64,000 nt of DNA from Elusimicrobiota bacterium (GCA_044221725.1 JBGAON010000005.1:143598-207597), one strand, 5' to 3'; positions 4,975-54,600 are shown, numbered from the stretch's first letter. Notes: generated by a model from the sequence alone, not told the origin. Made by a program: numbers and translations.

Positions 4975-6379
4975 CCGTCAATCCTTTTTTCAGTTGGAAT
5001 TGCCCATGGCTCTCAAGCCGCCATCAATAATTCCGCTTGTTGATTTTGCTGATTCATCCGTTGCATCGCCAGTCGTAACATCGGCAGCGAACGATACCCT
5101 TTAACCTTTCGCAGCTTTGGTTCGACCGTTATTAGAACTGTTCCCAACCATCGCTGCCGTTGATCAGAATTTTTCCAGTGACAGACTCGATTGGTTTTTG
5201 TTTCCACCAATTTGTTCACGTTTTCAATTACGTTCGTCGTTTTGAAACTGATGCCAAGCTGCTCAAAGATCCCAAGTTTCTGCAGCATTAGCGTGTCTTC
5301 GAATCCTTCGTCGAGGCTATTGGCTGCAGAAACATTTACCCGTGACAGCTCGGTTCGAATTTCTTTGAGTGCATTCTTGGCTTGCGTGTACGAACTCGTC
5401 TCATAAGCAACCTGTAGTTTTGGCCGGAAATAATTTTTGTCCGTCTCGCTCAAGTACGACAACACATCCTCGCGCTTGTGCCACGTGCACCGTTGGACAA
5501 ACGCCGTGTCCGGGAATTCGTCATCCACACCTTTGCGGATTCCTTTGCTTCCGTCCATGACGAACAGAATCTCTTTGTCCACACGAAGTCCACGCGCCTT
5601 CAACCCTTGAAAGAATTGTCGAATGACGCGGTGGTTCTCCGAACTCGTCTCTACAAACCCGAGAACCACTTTGTCGCCGGTCAGCGTGATCCCGACGGCG
5701 ATCACCATCTCCTTCTCACGCGAGAACGCTTTGCCGTCGATAAAAATCGCGATGATGTCGTAACTCGACAAGTTGCGTTCTTGCAGCGCACGTAGTTTCT
5801 TGGCAGACGAGCGGATCCACCGCCGGCTCACGCTGTTGCGCTTCAGTCCCATCGTTTGCGCGATCTGTAAGGCCGATTCCTCGTAATTGCCGGCGCTGAT
5901 CCCATGAATCATTCGCGACAGCGTCACCGCCTCGATTGTTGTCGGCTCCTGCAGCGCCGCATAACTCATTAGCGGTATTTCCTCGCCTGTCTTTTTGTTC
6001 CGAACACGCGGAACCAGCGTCCTCACTTTCTGGTCGTACATGTACACCGATCCAGCGTTGAAGCCGTGTCGTCCATTTTCATGACCTCGATTGTGATAGC
6101 GAGGTCCCGCCAACTTGAAAACTTCCGCTTGCAGTTTTTCTTTCACTGCGTTCAACCCCAACGGAATCAATGCTTGGATCATCGCTATCTTTGCCGTCTC
6201 TTCTGGATTTTCTTGCCGCAATTGCTCTCGCAGCATTTCTTTCTTCTTGATGCGTATACCTGGATTTTTTACTGTCATCTTCACCTGTGGCCTCCTTTCG
6301 GCTCTATGATTTCTCGTCGAAACCATTAAAGCGTCTGTGAGGTCATGGGTCAAATTTCAACTGAATTTAGGAAACCGCC
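4975..6379 (-). mobile_element. IS256-family insertion sequence, 1405 bp
   Basis: 9-bp direct repeat CGATCACTT at 4966-4974 and 6380-6388; imperfect terminal inverted repeats sharing TCCT...TTCAGTTG.AATT; encodes a Mutator-type transposase. Confidence 0.9.
5013..6353 (-). CDS. IS256/Mutator-family DDE transposase (true start may be the downstream MTVK Met near 6278)
   Basis: Motifs VPRVR, IFIDGK, VMDGSKG, QRCTWHK, TTNVIEN typical of IS256 transposases. Confidence 0.92.
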   Translation of the reverse strand: MTHDLTDALMVSTRNHRAERRPQVKMTVKNPGIRIKKKEMLREQLRQENPEETAKIAMIQALIPLGLNAVKEKLQAEVFKLAGPRYHNRGHENGRHGFNAGSVYMYDQKVRTLVPRVRNKKTGEEIPLMSYAALQEPTTIEAVTLSRMIHGISAGNYEESALQIAQTMGLKRNSVSRRWIRSSAKKLRALQERNLSSYDIIAIFIDGKAFSREKEMVIAVGITLTGDKVVLGFVETSSENHRVIRQFFQGLKARGLRVDKEILFVMDGSKGIRKGVDDEFPDTAFVQRCTWHKREDVLSYLSETDKNYFRPKLQVAYETSSYTQAKNALKEIRTELSRVNVSAANSLDEGFEDTLMLQKLGIFEQLGISFKTTNVIENVNKLVETKTNRVCHWKNSDQRQRWLGTVLITVEPKLRKVKGYRSLPMLRLAMQRMNQQNQQAELLMAA

Positions 6380-10070: not shown

Positions 10071-10099
10071 CCTGCGACCATACGAGCAGCGGAAAGTTG

Positions 10100-10152
10100 T
10101 TACAACAAATTTGCAAGTCCTTAAGATTGGCTTAAGACAGCTCTTGTCTAAT
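10100..10152 (+). promoter_or_regulatory. Conserved four-repeat operator/promoter, copy 1
   Basis: TTAC-aacaaat-TTGC-aagtcc-TTAA-gattggc-TTAA-11nt-TCTAAT, then 7 nt to the GTG start; same spacing as copies 2-4. Confidence 0.75.
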
Positions 10153-10159
10153 AGAAATT

Positions 10160-13100
10160 GTGAAAAAATCCCTCGTAAGGAGCGTTGCGGCGGCTCTATC
10201 GGTTGTTTATTTTGCAACGAACATTGCGTGGGCACACCAATCAGCCGTTGTCGAATTGGATTTCCGGTCTCACGCGACAATTTGGGCGGACCGCAAACCA
10301 ACAGAGCCGTACCCAAAGACTCCGCCAACAAAGCTCGCCGCCCTGCCTGCCAACATCAATGCGCAACTGCCCTCGATCAATCGCCAATTCTCTGCGATCA
10401 AAGAAAACGCCGCTTCGATTTCTTCCCGCATAAGTAATTCGCTTTCGGAGAAGAACGCGCAAATGCTGGCGCCGCTTTTTCGCACGCTGCCGCAAACCGC
10501 GGGCACAATTCGAAAAATTGAAGTACCGCGCGCGGAGCCGCGCGGAGTCGTCGTGCACATTCAGGATGTCCACCGAAATTTTGAAGCGCAAACGAATATC
10601 GGGAACGCCGTCGAGCAGCTGACCCGTGCGAATCTCGTTCAAGCGGTGGCGCTCGAAGGCGCGTTCGGTCCGATTGATTTGTCGTGGTACAACAATTATC
10701 CGTTTCAGGATTCGGTGAAAACCGTTGCCGACTACTTATTAAAGGAACACCGAATTTCTGGACCCATCCGTGCGGGTATGACCGCGGCGAAGAACCAGGA
10801 ACTAGGAACATCGTACATCGGTATTGACGATCCCACTCATTACGCCGCCAATGTCCGGGCCGTGCGCGCCGCAAAGACAGCCGAGACGAACATCAAAGAG
10901 GATCTCGAAAAACAAAATCGCGAGCTCGCCGCTGCGAAACTGAAATATTTCAGCGCTGCGCTAAGAGATTTCGATCGTCACGTGGAGGCTTATCGCCGCG
11001 GAAATGTTTCGTGGGGCGATCACGTGGAATATCTTTCCGACAAATCCGTAACGCGGGTTTCTCCACGCATCGACGCATTCCTTGTTGCATTAACGATGGA
11101 GAAAGAACTGAATGTTGCGGCGATCGAATCGGAGCGTGCGCGACTGCTTGAAAAGCTGGCGGGCAAGCTATCGAAGGGCGAAACGAACGAGTTGCTAGCG
11201 ATGAGCGCGGCTTTCCGTGATGGGCGCCTTAATCACGCTGACTTCTATTCGTTTTTGAAAAGATTCTGCCAACAGAAGTCCATCGACCTAGCGAGCTACC
11301 GTTCATTCGACGGGTATGTTCGTTACGTGTTGCTTTGCGAGCGTTTGGATGTGGAAGCAATTCTCGAAGAAGTGGCGACGCTCGAAAAAACAACCTATTC
11401 ATCGCTCGCACGAACAGAAAAAGAAAAGGAATTGGTGCAAACGGCGCGCGGGCTGTATTTGGCGGGGAAATTAACGGATTTTGCGCTGACGAAGGAAGAG
11501 TGGACGGAATATAGGAGTGAATTTATAACATGGGGAGGGAAAAGGCCCTTTGAAGAATTTTATAAGCAGGCCGAGCTTCGAGACTCGGCAATGGCCAATA
11601 ATCTCATCCACGTACTACGTAGCCGGTACAAAGTACCACGTACGTCTCTCAGCATCCTTGTCACCGGCGGCTTCCACTCGACCGGTATCGACCGCCAACT
11701 TGTGGACGCGGGATACACCGTCGTAACCTACATTCCGAAAATTTCGAAAGTCGACGACGTCGCGGGCTCTTCCTACCTCAGCGTGTTCACGCAGGAAAAA
11801 ACGCCGCTCGACCAACTGTTCGCGGGCGAGAAACTTTTCTTGGCCGAGAAGCCGGTTGCCTCTGCCGCAATGATGTCGTCGAGCGTGCACATGGTAAATC
11901 AAATTAATCATCGCGGCGCAGAATCTCCAGCACCATTGGATGTTCCAGCAAAAGACGTTGCCGAGACCAAGGTGAACGGTGACGAAGCGCAAATGCCGAT
12001 GAAGGGTGGTATTTTGAAAATTCGGGCGAGATCTGGTGGCTTGCTTGATATTCGATTCAACCCGTCATTGCTTCAGCGAATTGCGGGTGTAATCGCGGTG
12101 GGCGCCCTCATGTTGTTTGCTGGCGTTTTGCCCGCGCAAGATTTTGCGCAAGGTTCCCAGGGAGCGCCGGCGGCCACGGCGCAAGATGCGAATGCTGTCT
12201 CGCTTGCGTTGAAAATTACGGGCGTGTTCTTCGGCTTGTTTGCGGTGCTCCAAACCGTGATCACTGTTCAGCGCACATTCGAATGGAACCTTCGCGATTG
12301 GAAGCGCGGACAGGTGAGGCCAAGAGAGATGCTTTCCATGGCAGGCTCGTGGCTGTTCGTTGACATTTCTTTGCCCGCGATGTTCGGCACGGCGTGGATG
12401 ATTTTGCATCTTGGATACAACTTCGCGATTTCAAACATTGGGATGCGGGCGCTCCTTTTTGGAGCTGAGAAAGAATATTTCACTTTTATGGCGATGACAC
12501 TTTTCCTTGCGATCGTTCTTTTTCTGCTACGCGATCCCCGGTTGTATTCTGTCCGGCAGGAACGCGAAGGCGTGACGTCCGGGCCGGAGGGAAATAACGA
12601 CAGAGCGCATTTGCGCTATTTGGTCCCCTGGCTTTTTGCACCGATCATCGCCGGCGCGATGCCGAGCGCGATGTTGGCCCAGTCGGGCGCGCCGCCGGTG
12701 GAAAATTCGAATCGCGGTTTTTATCAAGCCGCCGCCAAGAATGCTGCGGTGGAAATTGCGCCGGAAGCTGACGCTGCTCAGCCGAAATGGAAGGAATTAA
12801 TGAACTTCGGTTTCCAATTCACGGCGACCGGTGACATTCGCGGCGGCTGGGGCAAAACCGATTTTGATTGGAACCGCACGAAAACCGAGCAGGCGAAATT
12901 GGTGGAGATGTTTAAAGGCAACGTGTACACGACGTTCGTGAATGATTTCGACCAAAAATTGAAAGACCGTGAGCTCACGGCCAAATTTCTCAAGAACCCG
13001 ACATGGCGCAAGAAAAAGATTGATGAGATGGTCGAGCTCGCAAAAGGCAGTCTCGGCGTCGGAATTGATTTTGAAAACATGTCGCGCAACAGCACGGCTG

Positions 13101-16100
13101 ATTTCAAGTTGTTCATTGAAGAGCTCGCCAAAGAACTCCACGCGAAAAATTCAAAGCTTTGTGTGATTGTCGAGCCCAAGACCGATACAAACGTCGGTGA
13201 TCGCGGACGCGCGATTGACTGGGCGCATCTCGCAAAACACGCCGACGAAGTTCAGGTGATGGCCTATTGGTACGGGCAAGGCCCCACCCGGCCCGACCAG
13301 ATTGCGCCGCTCAGTTGGATCAAGCAAATGGTCGCGCTCGCGGAAAAACAGGGACTCAAGGGAAAATTCACCGTCGCGCTCACCACATTCGGTTACGACT
13401 GGGCTTTGGATGGGTCCGGCCGGCAGGCGCTCAGCAAAACCGCGTTCTCGGAAATCGAAGCGCAGAAAGCGAATTGGAAGCGCTACGCGGACGGCGGCTC
13501 GATTTACTACGAATACACAGCGAACGACGGCAAGCAACACCGAGTTGTCACGGAAGATCTCGTCAGCATCCAACAAAAATACGAAGAGTTGAAAAAATTA
13601 CAGATCCCCGTCGTGTTGTGGGCGTTTGGTTTTGGTGACCCGGAAATTTTTAAGTGGGGTGAAAAAGCAGGTCTGTCCGTTTATCTTCCCTACTTTAGCG
13701 AGCCGGTCAAAGAGCTTTTGCGCAAACCGCAAACGCCGAAGACCGATAAGGTTGACCTGCAATTCCGCGGAAGCCCGTTTTTCCTCTTGGCATTGATCGG
13801 CCTGTTCATCGGTGCGCCGTTGTCGTTCGCGAATTCCAGTTCGGTCTCCAATTCCGCGAACGCCGGGACTCCGTCGGTTCCGGTTTTTGCTCAAGCTGGT
13901 TTGCTTAAAGAATATTGGTTCCTTCCTGTGATTGTTGGAATCGTAACTGCCGCGGTCATCTTTTTTATTTTGCGGAGCCGGTGGCCTAGCAATCCGCCGG
14001 CGACGGTTATGGAAGCGCCGACGCCGAATTACGCGTCGGACGAAGAACTTAAATCTTTCGTCGAGCGAAATCTTGCCCGATCGTATCTTGACGTGCCACG
14101 GATTTTGGTGGATGCACGACAAATAGTCGCCCCGCCTTCTGTTCAGGATCTGGTTGGTCGTCTTATTGCCGTGTGTGCTGATTTTGTTGCGACGGAACAG
14201 CGCATCGAAGACGCCGACGAAGCCGGATCAAAAATAACTGCTGTACTGAAAGCCATTCAATCCCGAGTGAAATTGAAAGTTGAAGCTCGTTACATCTCCC
14301 AACAAACGGCCGACGATTTTTGGATTACAGATGAGCAGCTTTTATCGAGAACCGCAGAATTCTTGGATTGGATGAATGATGGCCTTGCCGGCGAACGCAA
14401 AAAGCCGGCCACGATGATTCCCGAGCCAGATTTGGTATTGCCCACCGGCAATGAAGTGGGAACATCCTTCGTCGTAAGCATCGGCGGAACGAATGGTTTC
14501 TTGCAGGAAGTAACGCTGTTGGGCCACGGCGAATTTGAGAACAAAGGCAAAACGCGCGTCGATATTTTGCGCTACAAACAGGATATTTCGGGCATTTTCG
14601 ACGAATACGCCCAGGCGATTGCCGCGCGCATGGGAAACCAAAAAAAAGAGCAACGTTCGGTTGGTGTTGTTTGGGCGCATCCGGTTGAAAAGATCCGCGG
14701 GAAGGTGATCGCGCGCGGCTTGTCAAAAGGCTGGCTCGATCCGCAGAAGAAAGTTGTGGACCAGGATATTCAGCAATTGTTCAACGATGCGCTTCGACGT
14801 GCCGGTCTTGCGAACGTAACGGTCAGTATTGTCGTGAACGATACCTTTAATCCGCTGGCGGCACTGTCGTACATTCTTATTGGCAAACGCAAAAAGACCA
14901 AAGCGGCGCTTGCCGGTGCGATTTTGGGCACCGGTTCGAACGAAGCTTTCTTCGTGCCGGGATTTGGTTGGATAAACGGCGAGACCGGCGCCGATGATAT
15001 GACCAACCGCGATGGTTACGAACTATTTTCTACGCTCGAAGACAAAATTGTCGCTGCCGAAGATCCCGTCAATGAACACCGCTTTGAAAAACGTGTCGCT
15101 GGTAATTATCTCGCGAAGCTGTTTGTGCTGCGTCTCAAAGCAATCCGAAACGGAACAGGCATGTTTCGCTGGCTCGACGAAATTCCCCAATTTCGCGACG
15201 AAACATTGGACAGTTCGTTCCTGTCGTTTGTTGCGGACAAAAATATTCGGGACCTGATTTCCATTGAGCGAAAAATTCGGGAAATGTATTGGCGATCGCG
15301 CAAACATTCCCGTTTTGTTGCCAAGTTGTTGTCCCACACGGAAAAAACTTCTTTCGCGAGCGATCACGAATTGTTTGTGATGTACGAAGCCGTAAAAGCG
15401 ATTGCCGAACGATCCGCACGGCTTTTGGCCACGCATTACGCGGGTATCGCGCTGCGAAACGATCCGGAAATTAAGGAGCCGCAATGGTTCGCCGTTGAAG
15501 GCAGCGTGTTCAACAAATACCCGGGCTACAAAGCCATGGTGATGAATGCGATTGTGAAAATTGTCGGAGTGGAAAAAGCCGCCCGCATCGAATTGATCGG
15601 AGCCGAGGAAATTGCCCAAAATCTCGAAGGCGTGGGCGCTGCCATTCTCGCGATCACGGCGTACAACAAGCAGCGTGTTGCGCCACACGACGCGGTAAGA
15701 GTTTTTGAAGAGCTTCGCGCCGCGTCCGGCGGACGGCGGGTCACGGTTGTCGGAGCCAATGATTTTGCGGTGCAACATGAGGCTATTGGAAATCTGTTTA
15801 ACGTCGCGGGGCCCACGGAAATCGCTGTATTAACGGGAGGCAACTGGGCCCAAACCGGCGCGCGTGTCGAAGCGGCACCGCATACGAAAGCCATTGGAGT
15901 ATCGTCCGAAGATTTTCTGCAGTTGCTAAACATTTTCGCGGAAGCGTTCTCCAATTTGAATGGCGTGAACCAGCACATTGTTCAAGAATTCCGAGAGGCG
16001 GCGCAGCGATCGGGCGTGCTCGTGCCGAGAGAATTCTTGACTGGCCTTCACGTTACACCCGACGCGATTTACAACTCGCATCCGGCGGTCGGTGCACTGA

Positions 16101-17749
16101 ACGAGGCGCTCCAGCATCTTGCTTTACCGGCGGAGCACCCCATTCACTCTTTCGGGCCGAAAGATACGCACGTGTACTATCTGGACTTGGTTGTGCGGGA
16201 TCGTGAAGGAACTGTGCGCGTGGTACCCACCCATCGAAGCGCACCCATTATCGCGAGCGACGTCGAAATTCTCGGTATGGGACCTCGAACCATGGAAGTG
16301 TGGGCCAATATCATCGCGGAATCCGGTGGCATTATTCAGCTGGGCGCCGCACCGCACGTCGATCTGCCGACAGGCCAACATTACAGGGCGGCGGGGGTCA
16401 AAGCGCGCATGCACGATCTCGCCTCGCAAGGCCTCGTCGTTGAAGAATTCTTAGATGGAGTGACGCGCTACACATTGAAACTGCCGACAAACGCGGTCGA
16501 CTTGCGTGCGGACTCTGTTTCGACGAATTCTGGGGGCGCTGCGTCAGCGGCGGGCTATCACGGGCTTATCGTGTTTTTTACGCCGAGTCGAAAAGTTTTG
16601 ATCGCTTCCGTGCTTTTGTTGGTAACAGAAATTGGCGGACTTTTGTGGGGAAATTCCCATTCGTTGTTGCTTGGGGCCACCATCGCTGCCGCGGCTCCGT
16701 TTCATGTCGTTTTTGCGGAGCAAGGCAAAGATCCGTGGCTCGCGCGCGCCAATCAAAATGACCAGATGCTCGGTCATGTGTTGACTTGGGGGCTTTATCC
16801 GCTCGCGTTTCTTGCGATGCGCGGCTTATCGGCGATGATGTTGCCGTTGCCAGCGGTCGCTTATGTTCCTCTGGCCGCTGCGGTCGCCTATCATTTGCAA
16901 AAAGATTTTCGCTATTTCCGCCAAACGTTGAACCGCATTCGTGCTGCTGAAAAAATTGCGGCCGTGAATCACGCAATCGAAAGTTCCCCAGCGGATTCCA
17001 ACGGGAATGCGAGCGTGCAACACGTGCTCGCGAATCTTCGAGCGCGGGATCGCAAAGATGGCGGTCTCTCCAAAAATATTTCGGAACTCACGCCACATTT
17101 AACGAACAAAATTTGCACGTCACCGCTGTTGAGATGGTCGCGGATCGTCATGTTAAGCGCTGCAATGTTGGGGACGAACGGAATAAGCCAAGCGAACACC
17201 GCCAACGTGAAGCTCGACCGCGGGAGCAACATCGTCACGGTTGTGGTTATGGACGCGAGCGATGTCGAAGACAAAAAGGGAAGCCTGTTGCACGACACGC
17301 TGCGCAATATCGAAAAGCAGATTCGAGAGGGGAAGCTTGGCGCGACGGTCACCGTGGCCATCCCGGAATCGATGGTGGAAGACGCTTCCGCTCTCAGGGA
17401 AAGTGCCAAGCGATTGGCGCTTGATTTTGACGTTCCGGTCGTCGTGACGATTGACCGCGCGATAATCGGTCGAGGATTTGATCAACCGAACCGTTTCACG
17501 TTGAACCAACACTACGATGACGCTACGAGAGAAGTTGATAATCACGGTTCGCACAAGGCCGCGGAAAAAATTCGTTTCTACCAAAACAAAAATTTTGCGG
17601 GCGTGAACGTGAAAGTGGTGGCTTCGAAAGCGACGCCGTACACGGCGAATGGCGCGCTGACCCAAATTGCGCAGATGACAATTGCTGGCGTGACGATTTC
17701 TATCAGCGAAGCAATCAAGCTCGCCGAACTCGCCTACAAGATGGCGTAA
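10160..17749 (+). CDS. Giant protein 1 (2529 aa): signal peptide, conserved N-terminal domain, TM segments, GH18-like domain, hexokinase-like domain, TM module, C-terminal domain
   Basis: N-domain QDVH..EAQ, ALEG, GIDD, LTKEEW, GGFHS, YLSVFTQEKTPL (~10547-11841); GH18 GIDFE, DEVQVMAY, FGYDW, LWAFG (~12808-13641); hexokinase LPTGNE, IGGTN, VVNDT, ILGTGSN, FEKRVAGNYL, EGSVF (~14420-15650). Confidence 0.85.
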   Translation: MKKSLVRSVAAALSVVYFATNIAWAHQSAVVELDFRSHATIWADRKPTEPYPKTPPTKLAALPANINAQLPSINRQFSAIKENAASISSRISNSLSEKNAQMLAPLFRTLPQTAGTIRKIEVPRAEPRGVVVHIQDVHRNFEAQTNIGNAVEQLTRANLVQAVALEGAFGPIDLSWYNNYPFQDSVKTVADYLLKEHRISGPIRAGMTAAKNQELGTSYIGIDDPTHYAANVRAVRAAKTAETNIKEDLEKQNRELAAAKLKYFSAALRDFDRHVEAYRRGNVSWGDHVEYLSDKSVTRVSPRIDAFLVALTMEKELNVAAIESERARLLEKLAGKLSKGETNELLAMSAAFRDGRLNHADFYSFLKRFCQQKSIDLASYRSFDGYVRYVLLCERLDVEAILEEVATLEKTTYSSLARTEKEKELVQTARGLYLAGKLTDFALTKEEWTEYRSEFITWGGKRPFEEFYKQAELRDSAMANNLIHVLRSRYKVPRTSLSILVTGGFHSTGIDRQLVDAGYTVVTYIPKISKVDDVAGSSYLSVFTQEKTPLDQLFAGEKLFLAEKPVASAAMMSSSVHMVNQINHRGAESPAPLDVPAKDVAETKVNGDEAQMPMKGGILKIRARSGGLLDIRFNPSLLQRIAGVIAVGALMLFAGVLPAQDFAQGSQGAPAATAQDANAVSLALKITGVFFGLFAVLQTVITVQRTFEWNLRDWKRGQVRPREMLSMAGSWLFVDISLPAMFGTAWMILHLGYNFAISNIGMRALLFGAEKEYFTFMAMTLFLAIVLFLLRDPRLYSVRQEREGVTSGPEGNNDRAHLRYLVPWLFAPIIAGAMPSAMLAQSGAPPVENSNRGFYQAAAKNAAVEIAPEADAAQPKWKELMNFGFQFTATGDIRGGWGKTDFDWNRTKTEQAKLVEMFKGNVYTTFVNDFDQKLKDRELTAKFLKNPTWRKKKIDEMVELAKGSLGVGIDFENMSRNSTADFKLFIEELAKELHAKNSKLCVIVEPKTDTNVGDRGRAIDWAHLAKHADEVQVMAYWYGQGPTRPDQIAPLSWIKQMVALAEKQGLKGKFTVALTTFGYDWALDGSGRQALSKTAFSEIEAQKANWKRYADGGSIYYEYTANDGKQHRVVTEDLVSIQQKYEELKKLQIPVVLWAFGFGDPEIFKWGEKAGLSVYLPYFSEPVKELLRKPQTPKTDKVDLQFRGSPFFLLALIGLFIGAPLSFANSSSVSNSANAGTPSVPVFAQAGLLKEYWFLPVIVGIVTAAVIFFILRSRWPSNPPATVMEAPTPNYASDEELKSFVERNLARSYLDVPRILVDARQIVAPPSVQDLVGRLIAVCADFVATEQRIEDADEAGSKITAVLKAIQSRVKLKVEARYISQQTADDFWITDEQLLSRTAEFLDWMNDGLAGERKKPATMIPEPDLVLPTGNEVGTSFVVSIGGTNGFLQEVTLLGHGEFENKGKTRVDILRYKQDISGIFDEYAQAIAARMGNQKKEQRSVGVVWAHPVEKIRGKVIARGLSKGWLDPQKKVVDQDIQQLFNDALRRAGLANVTVSIVVNDTFNPLAALSYILIGKRKKTKAALAGAILGTGSNEAFFVPGFGWINGETGADDMTNRDGYELFSTLEDKIVAAEDPVNEHRFEKRVAGNYLAKLFVLRLKAIRNGTGMFRWLDEIPQFRDETLDSSFLSFVADKNIRDLISIERKIREMYWRSRKHSRFVAKLLSHTEKTSFASDHELFVMYEAVKAIAERSARLLATHYAGIALRNDPEIKEPQWFAVEGSVFNKYPGYKAMVMNAIVKIVGVEKAARIELIGAEEIAQNLEGVGAAILAITAYNKQRVAPHDAVRVFEELRAASGGRRVTVVGANDFAVQHEAIGNLFNVAGPTEIAVLTGGNWAQTGARVEAAPHTKAIGVSSEDFLQLLNIFAEAFSNLNGVNQHIVQEFREAAQRSGVLVPREFLTGLHVTPDAIYNSHPAVGALNEALQHLALPAEHPIHSFGPKDTHVYYLDLVVRDREGTVRVVPTHRSAPIIASDVEILGMGPRTMEVWANIIAESGGIIQLGAAPHVDLPTGQHYRAAGVKARMHDLASQGLVVEEFLDGVTRYTLKLPTNAVDLRADSVSTNSGGAASAAGYHGLIVFFTPSRKVLIASVLLLVTEIGGLLWGNSHSLLLGATIAAAAPFHVVFAEQGKDPWLARANQNDQMLGHVLTWGLYPLAFLAMRGLSAMMLPLPAVAYVPLAAAVAYHLQKDFRYFRQTLNRIRAAEKIAAVNHAIESSPADSNGNASVQHVLANLRARDRKDGGLSKNISELTPHLTNKICTSPLLRWSRIVMLSAAMLGTNGISQANTANVKLDRGSNIVTVVVMDASDVEDKKGSLLHDTLRNIEKQIREGKLGATVTVAIPESMVEDASALRESAKRLALDFDVPVVVTIDRAIIGRGFDQPNRFTLNQHYDDATREVDNHGSHKAAEKIRFYQNKNFAGVNVKVVASKATPYTANGALTQIAQMTIAGVTISISEAIKLAELAYKMA

Positions 17750-17827
17750 CACAATCCTAGTCGCTTTTTTCCGTCGATCTTTAAGCAAACACATCTATAA
17801 ATCAGTTCGTTTTTCGACGGAATTCGT

Positions 17828-17880
17828 TTACTGAAAATTTACTACTTCTTAAGGCAAACTTAATCCACTTCCGATAGCCT
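17828..17880 (+). promoter_or_regulatory. Conserved four-repeat operator/promoter, copy 2
   Basis: TTAC-tgaaaat-TTAC-tacttc-TTAA-ggcaaac-TTAA-11nt-TAGCCT; followed by a short leader with GGAGG (17901-17905) before TTG 17910. Confidence 0.8.
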
Positions 17881-17909
17881 GTCTTATAAGAATTCGGGGG
17901 GGAGGCCTT

Positions 17910-20900
17910 TTGATTCAATTCCGACGCGTATCCACGATGATATTTGCGCCAAAAACAATCGCGATTTTGTTGGTTTCGGTTCTCACATACGAAACTGTTG
18001 GTACACCTCTAGCAGAAGCCAGTCAATACAGCTCGCTGTGGTCCGAACGACGCAAAACTTCCTCTGCCACTCAAAACGAAAACGGCCAGAATCTTCTCGC
18101 TTCGCTTCCGTCCCAGTCTCTTCTGAAGCAAATGCCGTCGGTGAAAGCGGCGCTTCCGTCCTCCGTCGTAACAACACCGATCTCGAATGAAGCAAGAAAA
18201 ATTCCGCCGGTGTTGCGCGCGCTCGTGGCGGCTGTTCCCCAGAATCAGGGCATCGTGAGAGAAATTTATGCTCCTCTCTCATCGAGCAACGAACCGATTG
18301 TGTTGGCGCAAGACGTGCACATGAATTCGGAAGCGCAAATGAATTTGGCCGGGGTCATCCAAAATATTGTGCGCGAAAACAAAATTGATGTGATCGGAGT
18401 TGAAGGAGCGTTTGCGCCGTTCGATTTTGCTCTCGCACGCAAAAGCGGTTCAACGGAATCGCGCACACAATTGGCCAAGGCTTTTATGGACAAAAAACTC
18501 ATGGGCGCTGCTTCCTACATTGGTCTCGTGAACGATTCGCTACCGCCCATCGTCGGTGTCGACGATGAGAAACACTACGATGCGAACGTGCTTGCGTATT
18601 TGACGATCCGGCCGATGAAAAAGAAGACGCAGAAAGACCTTCAGAAGCTCAAGCGAAACTTGGATGAACGAAAGGCACAGGAATTCTCGAAAGAAATGCT
18701 CGCGTTCGACGCGTTGCGCAGCGGTTACCACGAAGGAACAATCCCGTTTGGTGTGTATGTAAAAAAGCTTTCGGCGCTCAGCTATCAGCTTGTTGATAGT
18801 TCGTCTTCGCCGGACAGCGGAAAGCGGATCGCTGAAAGCTCTCTCGCCGTTGAGCAGTTCATCGCCGCGTACGAAATGGAAAAGTCACTCGACTTTGCGC
18901 GCGTCGAAGCCGAACGCCGACGCGTGATCGAGAAACTCGCATCGGTGCTCAAAGGCGAGGATGTCACGACGCTCATCAATCACAGCGTTGCGTACAAGAA
19001 CGGACAGATCGGTTTTGGAACTTACTACCGTTTCCTTAAAAATTTGTGCGAAAGCAATGGCGTGCGCCTAAGCGACACGACCGCGTTCGATAACTACGTT
19101 CGTTATGTCTTGCTGTCCGACGGTATCAAAGCGGATCAATTGTTCGCAGAAATCACGAACATAGAAGACCGGGTGACAAAGGCGCTCGCACGCACGCCCG
19201 TCGAAAAGCAGTTGGCTGACGAAGCCGAGCATCTCGCGCTGGCGAACAAGCTCATTGAGTTTGAGTTGACGCCGGAGGAATGGGCCAAGTATTCGTCATC
19301 CGGGCATGATTTTGGCCGGGATCTAGGTGCTCTTGAGGATTTGACCGCTTTTGAAAATTTCTACCGTGAAGCCGATATCCGCAGCCACCGCATGCTCTCG
19401 AATTTGCTGGGACGAAATCGCCAGCGGGCATCGGTTCTGCTCACCGGCGGTTTTCACACCTCGCAAATGACGTCGTTGCTCAAAGAGAAGAAAATACCCT
19501 ACATCGTCGTGTCGCCGAAGCTCACAAAAGTCTCTGAGGACGAATCGGGCAGCGCGTACCTAAGCGAATTCTCACGGGAAAAAACTCCGCTTGAGAAAAT
19601 GTTCAGCGGTTCAAAACTTTTTGTTCTGCCAAAAACACAAATGGCCGGTTCGGCGGGCGGCCTCACAACATTCAAAGCGTTTGTGGTTTTCTTGATCGGT
19701 ATTGCCGGCCTATCCACGGGAAAAACCCGGGCGGATGTGGATTTGACCATCAACAATGTTCCGGTGCACGCGGTGGTTCAGCGCGGCGATATCCGCGGCG
19801 CTGTCGAAACCGTGGAGTTATCAGAGAAGGGTACCCCACAAACCTATTCTCTTTTGTATCCGTCGCTTTCAGCGCGCGGCATGGATTTCTTTTTTAATCG
19901 CGTCGCTTCACCGAAACGGCTCGTCATGGCCTTGGGCGGCATTTTAAGCGCTGTATTGCTGTCGCCCGCTCCGGCTCAAGCGGCTTTGGCCCCAAGGCTC
20001 TATGGCGTGGCCGCCGAAACGTTGTGGGGGGCCGCCGGTGGCGCGTTAATTTTTTCGCTTATCATCGGCAATTTTTTGTGGACCCGTTTCAATACACGGG
20101 AACCAAGAGTGAGCCCGCAACCCGACAATCGTTTTCGTCCAGGCCTCGACCAATTGGAGCAAAAAGAAACCCCGGCGAACCTGAACGTGTGGGTGGATCC
20201 GAATGGTGTTGTGCGCCCCGATGTTTTAACCGGGGGATTTAGCGATCAAGAATCAAAATCCGGTTTGCCGAGCGTGGAAGTTCGATTGGCCGATGGTTTC
20301 CATTTCTCGAACGGGGATCTCGTGCGCGTTTCGCTCAGTGGTCCGGCGGGTTCGCAATCTTCCGGCTGGGTTCCAGCGGCCGATCGCATGGTTTTCCCCT
20401 ACCACGGCGAAACGGGCATGGGGCTGCGCGCCGTGCATGCGGATGGAACAGACGCCGTCGCAACTGCCGTGCCGGGAAGTTTCGCAACGGCAATCCCCGT
20501 CTCGGAAGCGGCGCCTGGCAATCTCGGTTCGTTCGATTTGTTTACGGTGCGCACGCCTCCCGAAGAACCGGTTCAAGACCGAATCAGCGTGAACAACCAA
20601 AGCGTGAACGGTGACCGCGTGCAATTGCAGTATTCGTTACCGTCCGACATGTTGGTTCGGTTCTCGCACGTAAACGCCGGAGCCAACGGCCAAACCGAAC
20701 TTGGGTCGGGAACCGACTTTTTACCGGCGACACAGTTTAAAGACGGATACGCGATTCTCATTGCGAACGGACCGCTGAGAGCCGGGAATTCTGCTGATAT
20801 CGGATTTGCGGCGTATCGGTTGGATGCCTCGGGAAATTACGTCGAAGTGAAATTTCAGCCGGGGGAACCCGATTTGCCAATAACGGCCACGCTGGCGAAC

Positions 20901-44498: not shown

Positions 44499-45546
44499 AA
44501 GTTCGCATAGTAAGTGCAACAGTAAGTAGTTGAGGAGTTGGTTATCCCTTTAAACTGAGGGATACCATGAAATACAAGCACTTAACCGACGGCGAACGAG
44601 AAACGTTGTCGTATATGAGAGCTTGTGGCAAATCGATACGAGAGGCAGCGTTCTATTTGAATCGAGCGCCCAGTACGATTGCCAGAGAAATACGGCGCAA
44701 TAAGAGTCGAGCACGTTATCGGTCCCATCTGGCCCATCGGGCTGCTATAGATCGACGCCATCAGACGCTCCGACGTCAACATCGGTTTAAAGCTGATCCT
44801 CAGCTGAGAGATCGTGTTATCGAATGGCTTAAGGCAGGATGGTCCCCTGAGATTATCGCAGGCCGACTGAAGCGTGAAGCCCATGGCAAGTCCGTAATAC
44901 ATCATGAGACCATCTATCGTTGGATTTATCGATACGATCGATCTCTCATCAAGTGTCTCGTCCGATCACATCCTCGTCGGTATCGTCGTCATCAACGGCG
45001 CTGGCCGAATCGAATTATCCCTCGACGGATTTCAATTCTCCAGCGCCCCGATTTCATTAACCAGCGCAAACAACCAGGGCATTGGGAATCTGACTTGGTG
45101 TGGGGATCTGGACGCGCTGCTCTGCAAGTGCTTGTCGAACGAAAAACCCGTTTCGTCTTTATTCGCAGAACCCGCAATAAATCCGCTCAAGCCAATTACG
45201 ATGCGCTCTCTGAAGCATTGGAACAAATCCCAACTTCTTTACGGCGCACCATCACGTATGATAATGGAAGCGAGAACACACTGCATTGTGAACTCAATGA
45301 CCGTTTCCAACTGCAATCGTTCTTCTGTCAGCCGTATCACGCCTGGGAAAAGGGAACCGTAGAAAACACCAACGGTCTGATCCGTCGATACTTCCCCAAA
45401 CGCACCAACTTCGATACCATCTCAGTTCACCAAATCGAAGACGTTCAACGTCGCCTTAACAACAGACCTAGAAAATGTCTTCGCTTTCAAACAGCCGGGG
45501 AAGCCTATTCTTCCACCTTCCGTTGCACTTAAAACGCGAATTCAGC
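44496..45546 (+). mobile_element. IS30-family insertion sequence, 1051 bp
   Basis: 26-bp imperfect inverted repeats TAGAAGTTCGCATAGTAAGTGCAACA (44496-44521) and CGTTGCACTTAAAACGCGAATTCAGC (45521-45546); flanking 3-bp direct repeat GCG at 44493-44495 and 45547-45549. Confidence 0.88.
44567..45532 (+). CDS. IS30-family transposase, 321 aa
   Basis: YKHLT..ER, STIAREIRRN HTH, WSPEIIAG, HETIYRWIY, GHWESDLV, LVERKTR, TITYDNGSE, WEKGTVENTNGLIRRYFPK. Confidence 0.96.
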   Translation: MKYKHLTDGERETLSYMRACGKSIREAAFYLNRAPSTIAREIRRNKSRARYRSHLAHRAAIDRRHQTLRRQHRFKADPQLRDRVIEWLKAGWSPEIIAGRLKREAHGKSVIHHETIYRWIYRYDRSLIKCLVRSHPRRYRRHQRRWPNRIIPRRISILQRPDFINQRKQPGHWESDLVWGSGRAALQVLVERKTRFVFIRRTRNKSAQANYDALSEALEQIPTSLRRTITYDNGSENTLHCELNDRFQLQSFFCQPYHAWEKGTVENTNGLIRRYFPKRTNFDTISVHQIEDVQRRLNNRPRKCLRFQTAGEAYSSTFRCT

Positions 45547-45555
45547 GCGTAAGAT

Positions 45556-45608
45556 TTACATTTTGTTTACGCGTTCTTAAGGAATTCTTAATCCGCGGCG
45601 ATTAGTAT
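45556..45608 (+). promoter_or_regulatory. Conserved four-repeat operator/promoter, copy 3
   Basis: TTAC-attttgt-TTAC-gcgttc-TTAA-ggaattc-TTAA-11nt-TAGTAT, then 6 nt to ATG 45615. Confidence 0.85.
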
Positions 45609-45614
45609 TTCTTT

Positions 45615-48600
45615 ATGATCTACGCCGATCGAGAGCAAGTTTCAGTATTTGTTCGACTCAAAAAACTCACTGCGGTTTCCATCCTTTTTAGTTTCACGTT
45701 CAACCAAATCCTTTTCGCGCATGTGCCCGAGACATCGGTTTGGTCCGAACGCCAACGAGCCCAGCCGTCATCCCGGCACGTATTTGGCCGGGATTCACGT
45801 GTTCTCCACGAAAACCTAGGTCTCGTACCAAAGGAACGTACCGGGACGATGGGTTCTCTCGCCGCCTTCTCCACGCTTCGTGAAACCTACAAAGGCGGGT
45901 CTGGTACATCCCTCCTTATTATTCAGGATATTCACTTAAACACCGAGGCCCAAGCGAACATTGTGAAAATGTTCGACGTGCTGAAAAAAGAAGGGCGCCT
46001 TGGCACCATCGCCACCGAAGGCGTTTCCGGAAAATTCAATTTCGCACAGTTTTTTGCGCCGGGCAATGAGTCGGCTCGCAAAGTGGTGGCCCAGGCATTT
46101 TTGAACGATAAACGAATTGCAGCTCCGTCGTATTTTGGCGTTACCGCTCAGCAGCCAAACGCGAACGTGTTTGGCGTTGATGATGAGTCGCTCTATGCTC
46201 GAAATGTGCAGGCGTATGTTGACAGCTCGAAAAAACAGAAGGAGCTAGTTAAGAATATAGAAATCGAGCGCCGTGCCGTGGCTGAGCAGAAAAGAAAAAT
46301 ATTCAACGCCGACTTGATGCGTTTGGATTCGATAGTTGATTCGTATCAGGCGGGCAGCCTTCCGCTTGGAAAATTTTTGCCGCACCTTACGTTCACGTCG
46401 CCGGCGTTAAAGAAGTTCGCGGAAGCGTATGCGCTCGAGCAGAAAATCGATTTTGATCGCGTCGCGCGCGAACGCCGCTCCGTCATGGAAGTGCAAGCGC
46501 TTTCCGTTTCTCAGAAGAAAATGTTCGGCGATTATTTGCGCTACGTCGATTTGGCAAACAGCATCAACGCCGATGAACTTGTTCGCGAATTGCAGGCGGC
46601 CACGAAAGCATCGTTGCTGGTTCTCGCAAAAACGCCAGCCGAACGCGAGCTGCTGCAAGCGTCTCGCGCGCTCGTTCTAAAAACACATCTTGTTAAGTTC
46701 TCCCTAACGCCGGAGGAATGGAAAGAGATCCGTGGCCTCAAAGGTGTCGGCTTTAAGCCGTTCGACGATTTTTATTCGCTGGCGGACTCTCGCAGCGAAA
46801 AGATGGTCGAGAACCTGTTGAACGAAAGCTCAAAGCCATCCGTTCTTGTGATCGGCGGTTTCCACACGCCGGGGGTCACGGCAGCGCTCAAAAAGCGCGG
46901 CATTGGTTATTCTGTCCTCACACCGAAAGTTACGAAGCTCGAAGATTCCGATTCCTCGTATCTGTCCATCTTCACGCGTGAAAAGACGCCAATCGAGAAA
47001 TTGTTCGCTGGTGAAAAGCTTACGATCCTACCGCAGCAAGTGTTGATCGGAGGAAACGGTCGGCTTGCGCAACAGTCCAATGACTTGTTTCGCCTCGAGT
47101 TGGCTTTCACGGAACTCGCTGCACAAATTCGTGCGATGCGCATTCACCGGTATCAGAGCACCGTTGGTGAGAACATTGCTTACACCAACATTCAAGGTCA
47201 GGATTATTATGGAATTGATCCGACGCTGGGAATCAATGTGCCGAAGGGATTCGAGAGACACGGCCTTATCACGGCGCCGGATGGAACGCGTGTCCTTCTC
47301 CTCGAGCGAACGTCCAAGAGCATTTTCTCCATTGAAGGATTGAAAGGTGCCGTACAAGCACTTAAAGATGTTAACAGCGTAATAGCAGCGAATCGTTACA
47401 CGATAACGCTTCTGGCGGGCTTGGTGTTGTTCGCATCGACGGGAAAAACATTCTTCCTTGGAATTGCGGCGCTTCCTTTTATTTTCGGCCTCACGATCGT
47501 TTCTTCCCCGGTCGGCGCGTCCAATTGGGTAGAAGAAAACACGCCTGGTTTGGCGGGCAAGAATATCATCGAAGTAACAATGGAGATGGCGTTACCCGAT
47601 GCTGCGATCGAGGAGCTTTCGCGCCGCGGTGCAACCGATGACGAGCTCCGCGCCGTTGCCATGGCTTCTTCGACGGGCGGGATCGGTCCGTTGTTGCACG
47701 AGCGCGTTATTGCGCAGTCCAATTTGGGAGCCCACGTTACCGCGGTTTCGCTTTTGTACGACAAAGTGTGGGTTCAGAAATTCAAAAAAGACAAAGACGG
47801 TCATGACATCATCAATCTCGAGAAAGTGGAAGTCGGGCATCTGCTGCGAAATTATTTCGAAAAAATGCCGTTCACGATTGATCTTGAAATGTACGACGAA
47901 TCCATTGTCACCGCAGAGGTGTACCGCGCACCAACTGGCCTTTACGGACGTGCCAACGTGTATTTCCTTTATCACCCGTCGATGACCGAAGTGGTGTACC
48001 CCGGCGAAAGAGATTTTCCGGATCCCCAAGAACCCGAAAAAACCACAAAGCGACGGCAGTTTAAAGAGACCAGCCGGTTGCAACAAAACTGGTTGGTGGG
48101 CCGGGGAACCTTGGCGTTGCTCGAAAAACTGAACGAACAGACCAACGTGGCGCCCGATGTTATCGTCATGAGCGAAATGCCGACGGTGTTTGTTCATCAC
48201 CGAATGTTTTTGGATCGGTTCTCGGAACACCCACTGTTCCGAAAAGCAAGTTATATTTTCAATGATCACACGCCGCTCGAATATGCGCATCCGAAATGGA
48301 TGTGGCATGAACTGAAGAACATGCGACTTGACCCGCGCTATTACGAAGGAATTCCGTCCGTGTGGGGAAGCAAAGATGGGGAGCGGGCCGTTGATGGCAC
48401 CGCGATGATCATCAACGCGGCGGATGCCGTTTATGGCGTTGCGAAAAAGCACGGTGAAGTGATGCGCCGCATGCCGCTCTTAAACGAGTTTGCGTCAAAA
48501 ATCGACTCCATCACGAATGGCGTCAGCCCGAAATGGATGGCGAAAGAGTTTGGAAGTATCGAAAACGTGAAGCGGTTATCAAACACGCAACTTCTCGAAA

Positions 48601-51542: not shown

Positions 51543-51580
51543 AATCGCGTCGTTTCTTCGTCGCAGAAAATAGCGTTCCG

Positions 51581-51633
51581 TTACAGAAAATTTACGCGTT
51601 CTTAAGGCGAACTTAAGACAGCATTCGTATAGT
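51581..51633 (+). promoter_or_regulatory. Conserved four-repeat operator/promoter, copy 4
   Basis: TTAC-agaaaat-TTAC-gcgttc-TTAA-ggcgaac-TTAA-11nt-TATAGT, then 6 nt to ATG 51640. Confidence 0.85.
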
Positions 51634-51639
51634 GGTTCC

Positions 51640-54600
51640 ATGAGATTTTCGTTACGAAAAGGCAGTGCCGCCTTTATTGCCGGTTCTCTTTTTATCACCC
51701 AGGTTCTCACGAATCCGATGTTGGTGCAAACCTGTTTTGCGCAAAACACCGGATTTGGATTGCGCGCCAGCGCCGATATCTGGACGGAACGTTCGAACCA
51801 AATTGCTCGCCTAAAATCTCCGCAAGCCGACATTTTTCCAACGCGAGCCGCCGATAACGCGTTTAAACCTTTCTTCCAATCCGTCAATCCATTCGCGCGC
51901 GTGGGCGAAACACACATCGAGAACAACGGCGGCCCCACGGTGTTGTTGCTGCAAGACGTTCACATGAATCTTGAGGCGCAAAAGAACATCGGCGAAGTCT
52001 TGTTGCGCACGCCGAAGAATTCCGTGATCGGCGTGGAAGCGGCCGTTGGCCCTTTTGATTTTTCGAAATTCCGTTCTTATCCGGAACCCAAAATTCTCGC
52101 GAACATCGCGTCCGTATTGCTGCGCGAAAATTATATTTCGGCGATTTCGTGGATGGGACTCACGGCCAAGGGCTCGCTGCCAACGATTGTCGGCGTCGAT
52201 GATTCCAGTTTGTATGTGAAGAACGTCGACGCGTTCAAGAACACAATTGCGATAAAAGCGGATCGGTTATCCAGCATCGAAACGGCCCTGCAAAAACTCG
52301 CGCATGAAAAAGCCGATTTGTTCTCCGCTGAAGAAAAAGCGCTCGATGCGTTGATCACGAATTACGAAGCCGGCAACGTCACGCTCGCCGCGTATATCCA
52401 ATCGTTGGAACAATCGGTTTCAATGGATGCGTTCCCATCGCTAAAAACGTTGTCGGCCGCGCTTCAGCTGGAAGCGCGTTTGGATCAGAAACAAGCCGAA
52501 CAAGAAAGGGAACGGCTTGTTCGAAAGATTTCCGCCACCGATTCCGCCGCGCTCCAACAATTAACAGCCCTCAGTATTTCGCACGGCGCCGGCGAAATGG
52601 AGGCTACGACGTTTTATTCCGAGTTCCGCTCCATATTAAATGCGCATCATATTTCGCTCGCAGCGTACCCGCATTTTTCCACCTACGTCGAATACGCAGC
52701 GCTCGCCGACGGCATCAAGCAAGAAAGAATCTTCAAAGAAATTCAGGATTTGACGAAAGCCGCGATCGGAAAAATCGCGCGCCGTGAGCAAACGAAGCAG
52801 CTTTTTAAACAAGGCCGCACGCTTTTTCTTGCAAAGAAGCTTGTAAATTTCGAACTGACACCGGAAGAGTGGAAGGAATATCAAGTGGGTCCTGGATTGC
52901 GACATTCCAGGACGACAGCGTCAGTACCTTCCGGTACGAACTTGGAGGCTTTTTTCGACTTCTACCGCTATGCCGAAGCGCGCAACGAGAAGATGGTGAA
53001 CAATCTTTTGAACGCGCGGGGGAATTCGAACACGATCGTTTTGCTTGCCGGTGGTTTCCACTCCGCTGGTATTCGCGCGCTTCTTCGTGCGCGCGGTGTA
53101 TCGTACGCGGTGCTCACGCCGCGCATTTCCCAAGACAATCTTGGAAACGGATCTGCTTACTTGGGCAGTTTCATTCGTGATCGCACGCCACTCGAAAAGC
53201 TTTTCTATGGAGAAAAACTAACGGTTGCTGCGGCGGATACCATTCTTGGCCCATCGAACCCAATTGCTCCGGGCCGCCGCTGGTTGCCCGCGGCTGCCAT
53301 CTCGTTGACCGCGGTGCTCGCGGCCGCGTACTTTGCTACGGGCGCAAATCCGAATTTGGAATTGGCCACGCTCTCGGCCTGGATAGCGGGCATTTCGGGC
53401 GGTGTCGCGATTCTGTTGAGCGCCCAAGACCGTCGGGCGCACCTCAATATAAATGGAACAGAAATTGAAGCGGGAGCCGAACTTTCGGCGCCCGCCTATC
53501 GCACGATCAAAGATGTTCCGGGCCTCGGCAACGTGGGATGGAACACGCACCGCTCCTTTGGCACCGTGATCAAAGGCATTGCGCTGGTTGTTTTTGGAAT
53601 TGCGTTTATCAAGTTACTGACGAACGTTTTCGAACCGTTTGTAAAAGCGCGCGACGTGATTGCCGTTGGACATTCTCCGTCATTTCCTATGCGCACGGGT
53701 TTTTTCCGATGGGGATTCTTGCTCACGATTGGCGTCGCTTTCTTGAGCATGGTGACAACCACCCGAGCGTACTTCCATCGGTTTGCGCCGGAAAAAAGTT
53801 TCGGTGACCTTCCTGTTGAGAAGCTCAATTCGATGTCGGACGTCGAATTGTGGAACGAGATAAAAAAGAACGGATACATTCGAATTCATGAACGGCTTCC
53901 TTATCTGCCCCACGGCGGCAGCCGCGTGGAAGGACGGCTTTGGAATTACTTCCTAACCCATTCGGTGGACGAGCTTGTCCCCGATTTCCAAAAAATGGAC
54001 GCGTGGACCGTGGCCCAAGTTTTGCAGAACGAAAACATCATGAATCATGAGCACCGGTTGGCGAAACCGCACAAAATCATGATGGCGCTGTCGCACGAGC
54101 AGCGCTCCGATGTGAGCGACAACATGAAGCTCAAATATTACCGCCAGCTAATGGATCCAACGCGTGTAAAAAAAGTGGTCTACATTGCGAGCGAGGTTCG
54201 CGGAATTTTCCACACAGGCGGCATTGGGGTTGTGGCGGACAGTTTCCCGCGCGCGATGCAGGGGTTTGGTCACGATGTGAGTCAGATCCTTCCTTATTAT
54301 GAGGGCGTCGGTATCGAAGAAGAGATTTCCAAGAATGTTGCGGCCGGGATTTGGACGAAAAAAGAATTGTTCCAGAAAATCAATGTGCCAATGGATGGGC
54401 ATATCGTTACCGCGACGGTCGTTCAGATTGATCGGCGCGATCTGCCAACGCTTTATCTGATTCAGAATCCGGAATATTTTGGCCGATACACCATGGGGAA
54501 AGACAAGCGGGGCAAATTAAATCCCTACTTCCCGGCGAATTTGCCCAATTCGCACGCGAGCTTCACCGAAAGAGAGATGTTGACGCTCGAACGGTTCATT

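Follow-up and report, generated by a model that had tools for sequence, protein, structure and literature searches.

A TIKI-like head domain at the N-termini of giant modular proteins from an Elusimicrobiota bacterium

What domain do four giant proteins, encoded in one stretch of the genome of an uncultured Elusimicrobiota bacterium, share at their N-termini, and what may it do there? The question is raised by a segment of 64,000 nucleotides (GCA_044221725.1 JBGAON010000005.1:143598-207597; referred to as the window, with positions counted from its first letter) from a genome of 2.82 Mb (5 contigs, 94% complete). Four open reading frames (ORFs) lie on one strand of the window: giant A (10160-17749, +; 2529 residues), giant B (17910-44498, +; 8862 residues), giant C (45615-51542, +; 1975 residues) and giant D (51640-60450, +; 2936 residues). 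In a first-pass annotation, their shared N-terminal domain had been proposed to have the EreA/ChaN/TraB-Tiki metalloenzyme fold with a large helical insert. This domain, here called the head, is probably the constant N-terminal part of many paralogues in the Elusimicrobiota, namely membrane proteins that are modular and for the most part giant; in the reading that we consider most likely, it is an exported, active TIKI-type hydrolase that is tethered to the membrane and uses the insert as a substrate-selecting lid.

The heads were delimited at 10472..11860 in giant A (residues 105-567), 18219..19643 in B, 45834..47045 in C (in which the insert is ∼40 residues shorter) and 51862..53244 in D, all on the plus strand. 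Common to the four copies are motifs 1-4, QD(V/I)HxNxEAQ, xE(G/A), G(I/V)DD and LTxEEW, and motifs 5-7, AxxRxxxMxxNL, GGFH(S/T) and YLxxFxx(E/D)(K/R)TP(L/I)xx(L/M)FxGxKL. They had been quoted for all four copies by the first-pass annotation, and were found again in the same order in A-D at coordinates that agreed within 15 nucleotides. Located by regular expression, the motif block spans residues 135-559 (A), 134-570 (B), 104-469 (C) and 105-527 (D), or approximately nucleotides 10562-11836, 18309-19619, 45924-47021 and 51952-53220. Against copy A, the trimmed heads show identities of 34% (B), 32% (C) and 32% (D), and 69 alignment columns are invariant. Copy A shares 49% identity with a paralogue on another contig, as against 31-34% with B, C and D, and 52% with a protein of another genome (among the matches listed); judged by these identities, the window copies are old paralogues.

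A search profile built from the four window heads matched 26 of the 2569 stop-to-stop ORFs of at least 200 residues in the same genome (E≤1e-5), always near the N-terminus. These 26 headed ORFs are 775-8881 residues long and together amount to 60,593 codons (6.4% of the genome). A library of 1.84 billion representative proteins yielded 8962 matches at E≤0.001, of which 5011 had E≤1e-30; the 150 matches listed all began at residue 4-154 of proteins of 621-7739 residues, and the named sources of the matches listed were Elusimicrobia or Elusimicrobiota and ‘bacterium F11’. The likeness of the four copies goes far beyond chance. Within the phylum, heads were present in 49 of 151 sampled genomes and 24 of 63 genera (E≤1e-10), usually with many per genome, and ORFs of head-only size (567-623 residues) were found in three other genomes; one family of the phylum had no heads in the 45 genomes searched.

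The head of copy A (463 residues) was modelled by AlphaFold2 (AF2) with a 42-row alignment. The model scored well (predicted local distance difference test (pLDDT) 87.4, predicted template modelling score (pTM) 0.83), and pLDDT values below 50 were confined to the last 35 residues. It comprises five strands (25-32, 56-61, 114-118, 392-399 and 415-422) plus flanking helices, and has the α/β core of the superfamily, a central parallel β-sheet between helices. A structural search with this model returned ChaN, BcR135/136, EreC and HopBA1 at ranks 1-5, with the Tetrahymena TraB-like subunit 8bqs_DQ (rank 7), PMT (rank 9) and RRSP (rank 13) below them. When the whole 463-residue model was searched against the PDB by Foldseek, no match reached E≤0.001, probably because the long helical insert dominates the search; EreC, HopBA1 and BcR135 were among the weak rows. 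At the sequence level, 23 of the 42 family members had a match to PF04187 (ChaN, ‘Tiki superfamily’) at E≤0.1, the best of them at 4e-08, and one of the 42 had a match to PF01963. All 11 six-frame matches of the genome to PF04187 sit inside headed giants, and a precomputed PF04187 label is borne by eight of the 120 database homologues listed.

The 26 heads were also aligned by using hhalign with a profile of the canonical TraB of another Elusimicrobiota genome (300 residues) and its relatives (120 TraB/GumN proteins). The alignment (score 38.8, P 1.2e-4) runs over 227 colinear columns and covers template positions 35-299 of 300, whereas the reversed template scored 14.1 and 20 column shuffles scored 21.7 or less. 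In it, DVH of the head stands opposite SIH of TraB, LEGA opposite VEad, R..M opposite RN..M and GGFH opposite GAGH. Kinship of the head to TraB (PF01963) is visible at the profile-profile level only. The assignment to the EreA/ChaN/TraB-Tiki fold holds on the structural-search ranks, the recurrent weak PF04187 matches and this alignment, and we consider it very probable that the head has the TIKI-superfamily fold.

The residues of the candidate active site are all but invariant in the family. Ten positions of the domain (D32, H34, Q40, E62, G117, R370, G399, G400, H402 and P422) are kept in 239-242 of 243 sequences, the rest being gapped. The superfamily's acid-x-His appears as Q-D-(V/I)-H after strand 25-32, with D32 and H34 in 239 of the 243 sequences and the other four gapped; the first acid is Asp in the head and Glu in RRSP (E-x-H), and TraB has G-x-x-H. 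The catalytic Glu has its counterpart in E62, which stands after strand 56-61 in 242 of the 243 sequences and pairs with the Glu of TraB VVEad; the conserved basic residue is matched by R370 (241 of 243), which pairs with TraB R-N-x-x-M, and the second His by H402 (241 of 243) in the G-G-F-H that ends strand 392-399 and pairs with TraB GAGH. In protein A these positions correspond to D136 (D32; 10565-10567), H138 (H34; 10571-10573), E166 (E62; 10655-10657), R474 (R370; 11579-11581) and H506 (H402; 11675-11677), all on the plus strand; the putative catalytic residues are D135, H137, E165, R491 and H516 in B, D105, H107, E135, R393 and H417 in C, and D106, H108, E133, R448 and H474 in D.

In the AF2 model, D-x-H, E, G-x-D-D and GGFH form the C-terminal ends of strands 25-32, 56-61, 114-118 and 392-399, and R370 is placed in the helix preceding the last of these motifs. 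In a parallel sheet such C-terminal strand ends form one edge, and the candidate catalytic residues would lie close together in space, as judged from their strand-end placement. The available text of PMC6254334 describes TIKI enzymes as carrying two His and two Glu plus a conserved basic residue (Arg) on a parallel-sheet core, at this same edge. The same portion of that source states that RRSP functions without metal and, citing other work, that metal serves structure and not catalysis in Ere enzymes. The head, too, may therefore act with or without metal. That the head is a catalytically active hydrolase is, in our judgement, slightly favoured.

The large helical insert that had been proposed is real: residues 121-350 of the model (residues ∼225-454 of copy A) are helices only, and head length varies among the 26 paralogues from 268 to 505 residues, with an all-helical insert of 0 to ∼230 residues between the two halves of the core. 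The profile match is split around the middle in 13 of the 26 paralogues; in copy C it covers positions 2-224 and 262-454. Some of the helical region belongs to the superfamily as such, since it aligns with the helical middle of TraB in hhalign; the remainder is an expansion. A four-helix part (model residues ∼214-290) may be a paired-amphipathic-helix (PAH) or α-α-hub module. An EF-hand reading of the insert was rejected: calmodulin-like PDB profile matches were non-significant (E 0.015-0.2), and no Ca-loop was inspected.

How, then, does the head differ from the members of the superfamily that it resembles? In the TraB/PrgY/GumN/Tiki group (PF01963) the first motif is G-S/T-x-H, against Q-D-V-H in the head; the helical middle of the head reaches ∼230 residues, and 0.5-8 thousand residues follow it. 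Canonical TraB was present in two of the 151 sampled genomes, against heads in 49. ChaN of Campylobacter jejuni (2g5g, PF04187) superimposes on the head model with a root-mean-square deviation of 5.9 Å, and the sequence match of the head covers only the last third of PF04187 (positions ∼120-207 of 213); ChaN is a small stand-alone protein. EreC (6xcq, 6xcs) and Bacillus cereus BcR135/BcR136 (2rad, 3b55, 2qgm), which belong with PF05139, have no sequence-level match to the head, and likeness to these erythromycin esterases is at the level of the fold only. Ere enzymes are cytoplasmic stand-alone esterases.

Giant proteins with some of these properties have been described from Omnitrophota and related phyla of the Planctomycetes-Verrucomicrobia-Chlamydiae (PVC) group (West-Roberts et al., bioRxiv 10.1101/2023.11.21.568195). 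According to the available part of that preprint, they likewise have very long ORFs, signal peptides and many transmembrane regions and, as in Elusimicrobiota, mixed enzyme domains (GGDEF, NUDIX, Ser/Thr phosphatase, CheY); their N-termini ‘generally lack identifiable domains’ except for C39 and S8 peptidases. A TIKI-like head, an upstream element or an Ala tail (see below) goes unmentioned in that part, and the supplementary domain tables could list the domain. No description of the head was found in the literature on giant proteins, Tiki or TraB of Elusimicrobia/Elusimicrobiota and Omnitrophota, and a protein-atlas feature search returned just one nameless Omnitrophota cluster.

Annotation is largely lacking for the giant proteins of both Elusimicrobiota and Omnitrophota. 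The head is conserved, foldable and enzyme-like, has five near-invariant candidate catalytic residues and starts ∼9,000 protein clusters; it can be expressed, assayed and mutated as a stand-alone domain, which makes the function of the whole giant class experimentally approachable. It gives experiments a first point of access to thousands of giant proteins of unknown function and merits a domain model of its own, as current libraries miss it.

The head is only one of several parts that the giants have in common. Each begins with a leader (A, 10160-10294; B, 17910-18050; C, 45615-45752; D, 51640-51792; all +) that runs from a basic stretch through a conserved hydrophobic core (...VYFATNCAFA, with an A-x-A-type end) to E-x-N-x-W-x-E-R-R; in A, a basic N-terminus is followed by hydrophobic ...VVYFATNIAWA and then W-x-(D/E)-R. 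The motif W.[ED]R was found in 17 of the 26 paralogues. The leader may be cleaved by signal peptidase, and canonical TraB of the same phylum likewise begins with a signal-peptide-like sequence.

Placed 40-70 nucleotides upstream of the giants is an element of the form GTTAC-N5-(A/T)TTTAC-N5/6-CTTAA-N6/7-CTTAA (10091-10151 before A, 17818-17880 before B, 45546-45609 before C and 51573-51634 before D; all +). By using an nhmmer profile (E≤10), it was detected ahead of 25 of the 26 headed giants; the genome has 37 matches in all, 25 of them at giants. The element may be a promoter with an operator.

At the other end, the last 16 codons form a C-terminal tail (A, 17699-17746, ending ...YKMA-COOH; B, 44448-44495, ...GSQA; C, 51492-51539, ...GKYA; D, 60400-60447, ...EQGA; all +). 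The terminal residue is Ala in 21 of the 26 headed giants, against 8.4% of 2543 other ORFs, and in 146 of 217 database homologues. Hydrophobic residues occupy positions -15, -12 and -11 of the tail motif (∼16 residues), followed by Arg (-7), I/V/A (-5), A/L (-4), S/Q/A (-2) and Ala (-1). When a matrix built from 139 tails of other genomes was run against 8955 ORFs, the giants of this genome took ranks 1-4, 6, 8, 9, 13, 15-18, 23 and 26. The terminal Ala is encoded by GCG (9), GCT (5), GCC (5) and GCA (2); a nucleotide-level cause is unlikely, as all four Ala codons are in use, and therefore selection acts on the protein. The tail presumably resembles ssrA-type or tail-specific-protease signals. 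It is not part of a shared C-terminal domain: a jackhmmer search with the last 260 residues of A found A alone, and only the last ∼16 residues are alike.

Element, leader and tail also occur together in a giant that has no TIKI-like head. This 8370-residue ORF lies outside the window (contig C5, from 256702; 256641-281815 with the element) and keeps the upstream element (E 3e-7), a similar leader and a ...KSQA tail. The co-conservation of element, leader and Ala tail suggests that the giant genes are regulated and handled as one class.

Between head and tail, soluble stretches alternate with hydrophobic clusters in a hydropathy scan. The body of A (11861..17698, +) contains a GH18-like domain (residues 943-1141) and a hexokinase (residues 1381-1832), with hydrophobic clusters between; the body of C contains an α-glucan phosphorylase and that of D a GlgA-type glycogen synthase (Pfam, NCBIfam). 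The body of B (19644-44498, ∼8,300 residues) had no Pfam match at E≤0.001, and ∼28 hydrophobic segments were predicted in this giant. The recognisable cargo of A, C and D all concerns glucose or glycogen. Headed giants elsewhere in the genome carry metabolic cargo (2-hydroxyacid dehydrogenase, adenylate kinase, PRK/uridine kinase, dehydroquinate synthase with HD) and other cargo (PP2C with FHA, WD40, GGDEF, β-CASP nuclease, Ser/Thr kinase with a sigma-70 domain). Stand-alone paralogues were found in the genome for the phosphorylase (6e-135), glycogen synthase, dehydroquinate synthase, β-CASP and sigma-70 cargo, and not for the hexokinase, PP2C or PRK cargo.

What might the head do in such a protein? 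Sec export would place it on the periplasmic face, and the hydrophobic segments that follow it would tether it to the membrane. Tiki and PrgY have the order signal peptide, TIKI domain, membrane segment; by analogy with vertebrate Tiki and enterococcal PrgY, the topology of the giants would be signal peptide, TIKI domain, membrane anchor. In the putative active site, the His and Glu(Asp) residues would activate water and the Arg would hold the substrate, with hydrolysis of a peptide or ester bond, and the helical insert would act as a lid that selects the substrate.

Several results weigh against this picture of an exported TIKI-type enzyme and its kinships. The cut-off of PF04187 is 27.7 bits; copy A reached 15.2-16.1 bits, and B, C and D gave no match at E≤10. 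One of the 26 paralogues (881 residues) scored 30.3 bits against this model as a whole protein, and no six-frame match was above the cut-off. The cut-off of PF01963 (26.8 bits) was not reached either, the sole match in the genome being that of a 1042-residue short-insert paralogue (18.8 bits) and of no window copy. PF05139 had no match in the genome at E≤1, whereas seven of 14 control genomes were positive, and a PDB sequence-profile search returned no superfamily member. As the first position is Asp in the head and Glu in RRSP, the two may differ in their chemistry. No hydrophobic segment follows the leader in two headed paralogues (775 and 1042 residues), one of which has a P-loop kinase domain; these fit poorly to a topology with the head outside and the enzymes inside. 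Last, and against self-processing, the giant bodies of this genome showed no recurrent joint motif: they share no 5-mer, nor any 4-mer that is strongly enriched. With the structural and motif features of the superfamily present, and with the cut-offs of PF04187, PF01963 and PF05139 missed by the window copies, the head is a new family of a known superfamily, and probably an unannotated one within the TIKI / TraB-PrgY-GumN / ChaN / erythromycin-esterase superfamily.

If the head is a hydrolase, the family's own polypeptides could be its substrate, with maturation in cis or in trans. The conserved post-head motif and tail make such self-processing attractive, and we regard it as possible though unlikely. 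The post-head motif (motif 7; 11756-11836 in A and the equivalent place in B, C and D), in the form YLxxFxxEKTPLxxLFxGEKLF (peptide sequence YLSVFTQEKTPLDQLFAGEKLF), was left unstructured by AF2 (pLDDT <50 from residue 429) and could serve as a linker or processing site or lie close to the membrane. A candidate joint, R-S-E-x-R, was rejected for this genome: [RKW]SE.R had five matches in 60,593 residues, three of them the post-leader WSERR, at a density of ∼2× background. When the head of a 4221-residue paralogue was co-folded with its own last 45 residues, the result (score 0.01, mark 0.32, without controls) was evidence neither way. A broader version, about which we are more doubtful, would join upstream element, leader, head with post-head motif and Ala tail into a dedicated production line for giant modular proteins. 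The head would then be a peptidase that matures or releases giants in cis or in trans, the headless 8370-residue giant would be a trans substrate, and the terminal Ala of an amphipathic tail, ...R-x-(I/V)-(A/L)-x-(S/Q/A)-Ala, would be a recognition or degradation mark.

Other explanations place the substrate, or the purpose, elsewhere. The head could be an exported sensor or ecto-enzyme that acts on an external molecule, for example a peptide or ester of the envelope or the environment, and is coupled across the membrane to cytoplasmic modules; the giants would be receptor-like one-component proteins and not substrates of their own head. Much of the cargo would suit such signalling output (GGDEF, Ser/Thr kinase with sigma-70, PP2C with FHA, WD40), CheY and sigma factors occur in the database homologues listed, the order of signal peptide, TIKI domain and membrane segment fits that of Tiki and PrgY, and the head-only-sized ORFs of three other genomes of the phylum point the same way. 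The remaining cargo is plain metabolism, though (hexokinase, glycogen synthase, phosphorylase, adenylate kinase, dehydroquinate synthase), no functional link joins head and cargo, and the two are shuffled, as the closest listed head to copy A (52%, other genome) carries HEAT repeats; we rate this account as rather unlikely. More doubtful than the production line, if by little, is a non-catalytic head that serves in binding or assembly, either ChaN-like, with a cofactor or ligand, or peptide-binding through the PAH-like part of the insert, and that would dock the giants to one another or to a partner in the envelope.

Far less probable than any of these is that the head serves to process or traffic a secreted, MARTX-like multi-effector protein, with enzymes delivered into another cell and hydrophobic clusters that insert into the target membrane. 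Giant size, with several unrelated enzyme modules behind a signal peptide, would agree with it, as would the two headed paralogues without a hydrophobic segment after the leader and the effector members of the superfamily (RRSP, PMT, HopBA1); the stand-alone housekeeping paralogues (phosphorylase, glycogen synthase, dehydroquinate synthase, β-CASP, sigma-70) make those cargo copies extra. Yet the neighbourhoods of the giants show no recurrent secretion-system gene, the proteins showed neither an autoprocessing domain nor a block of repeats, the organism has no known host or prey, and the hexokinase, PP2C and PRK cargo, which lack stand-alone paralogues, may be the cell's only copies.

The genes beside the giants are varied. 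No recurring partner gene emerged from the 567 ORFs located up to 2.5 kb from giants: no family lies beside more than two giants, and the largest cluster consists of pieces of IS30-type transposases. In the window, an IS30-type integrase gene (44567-45532) lies between B and C, immediately ahead of the upstream element of giant C, and IS30-related copies or ends were seen close upstream of at least two further giants; the 9-mer GAATTCAGC was present in four of the 26 upstream regions of headed giants. A Mutator-family transposase gene (5013-6353, -) and, downstream of giant D, an Omp85/POTRA (BamA-like) gene (61402-63015) are also present; a paralogue of the latter adjoins another headed giant on contig C5.

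Genes A and B are tiled by short metatranscriptome contigs (≥99% identity) from four RNA libraries, all of a single study. One contig of 365 nucleotides corresponds to 17608-17972 and connects the end of A to the start of B across the spacer that holds the element. These contigs, which show no transcript ends and could stem from DNA carry-over, hint that giants A and B are expressed.

Two other giant ORFs of the genome have no TIKI-like head, one of 13,703 residues (contig C3, 407277-448388) and one of 8,776 residues (contig C5, 215673-242003). Their C-termini differ (...VVVAR and ...IVIVR, respectively), and these two headless giants seem to belong to another class of giant proteins.

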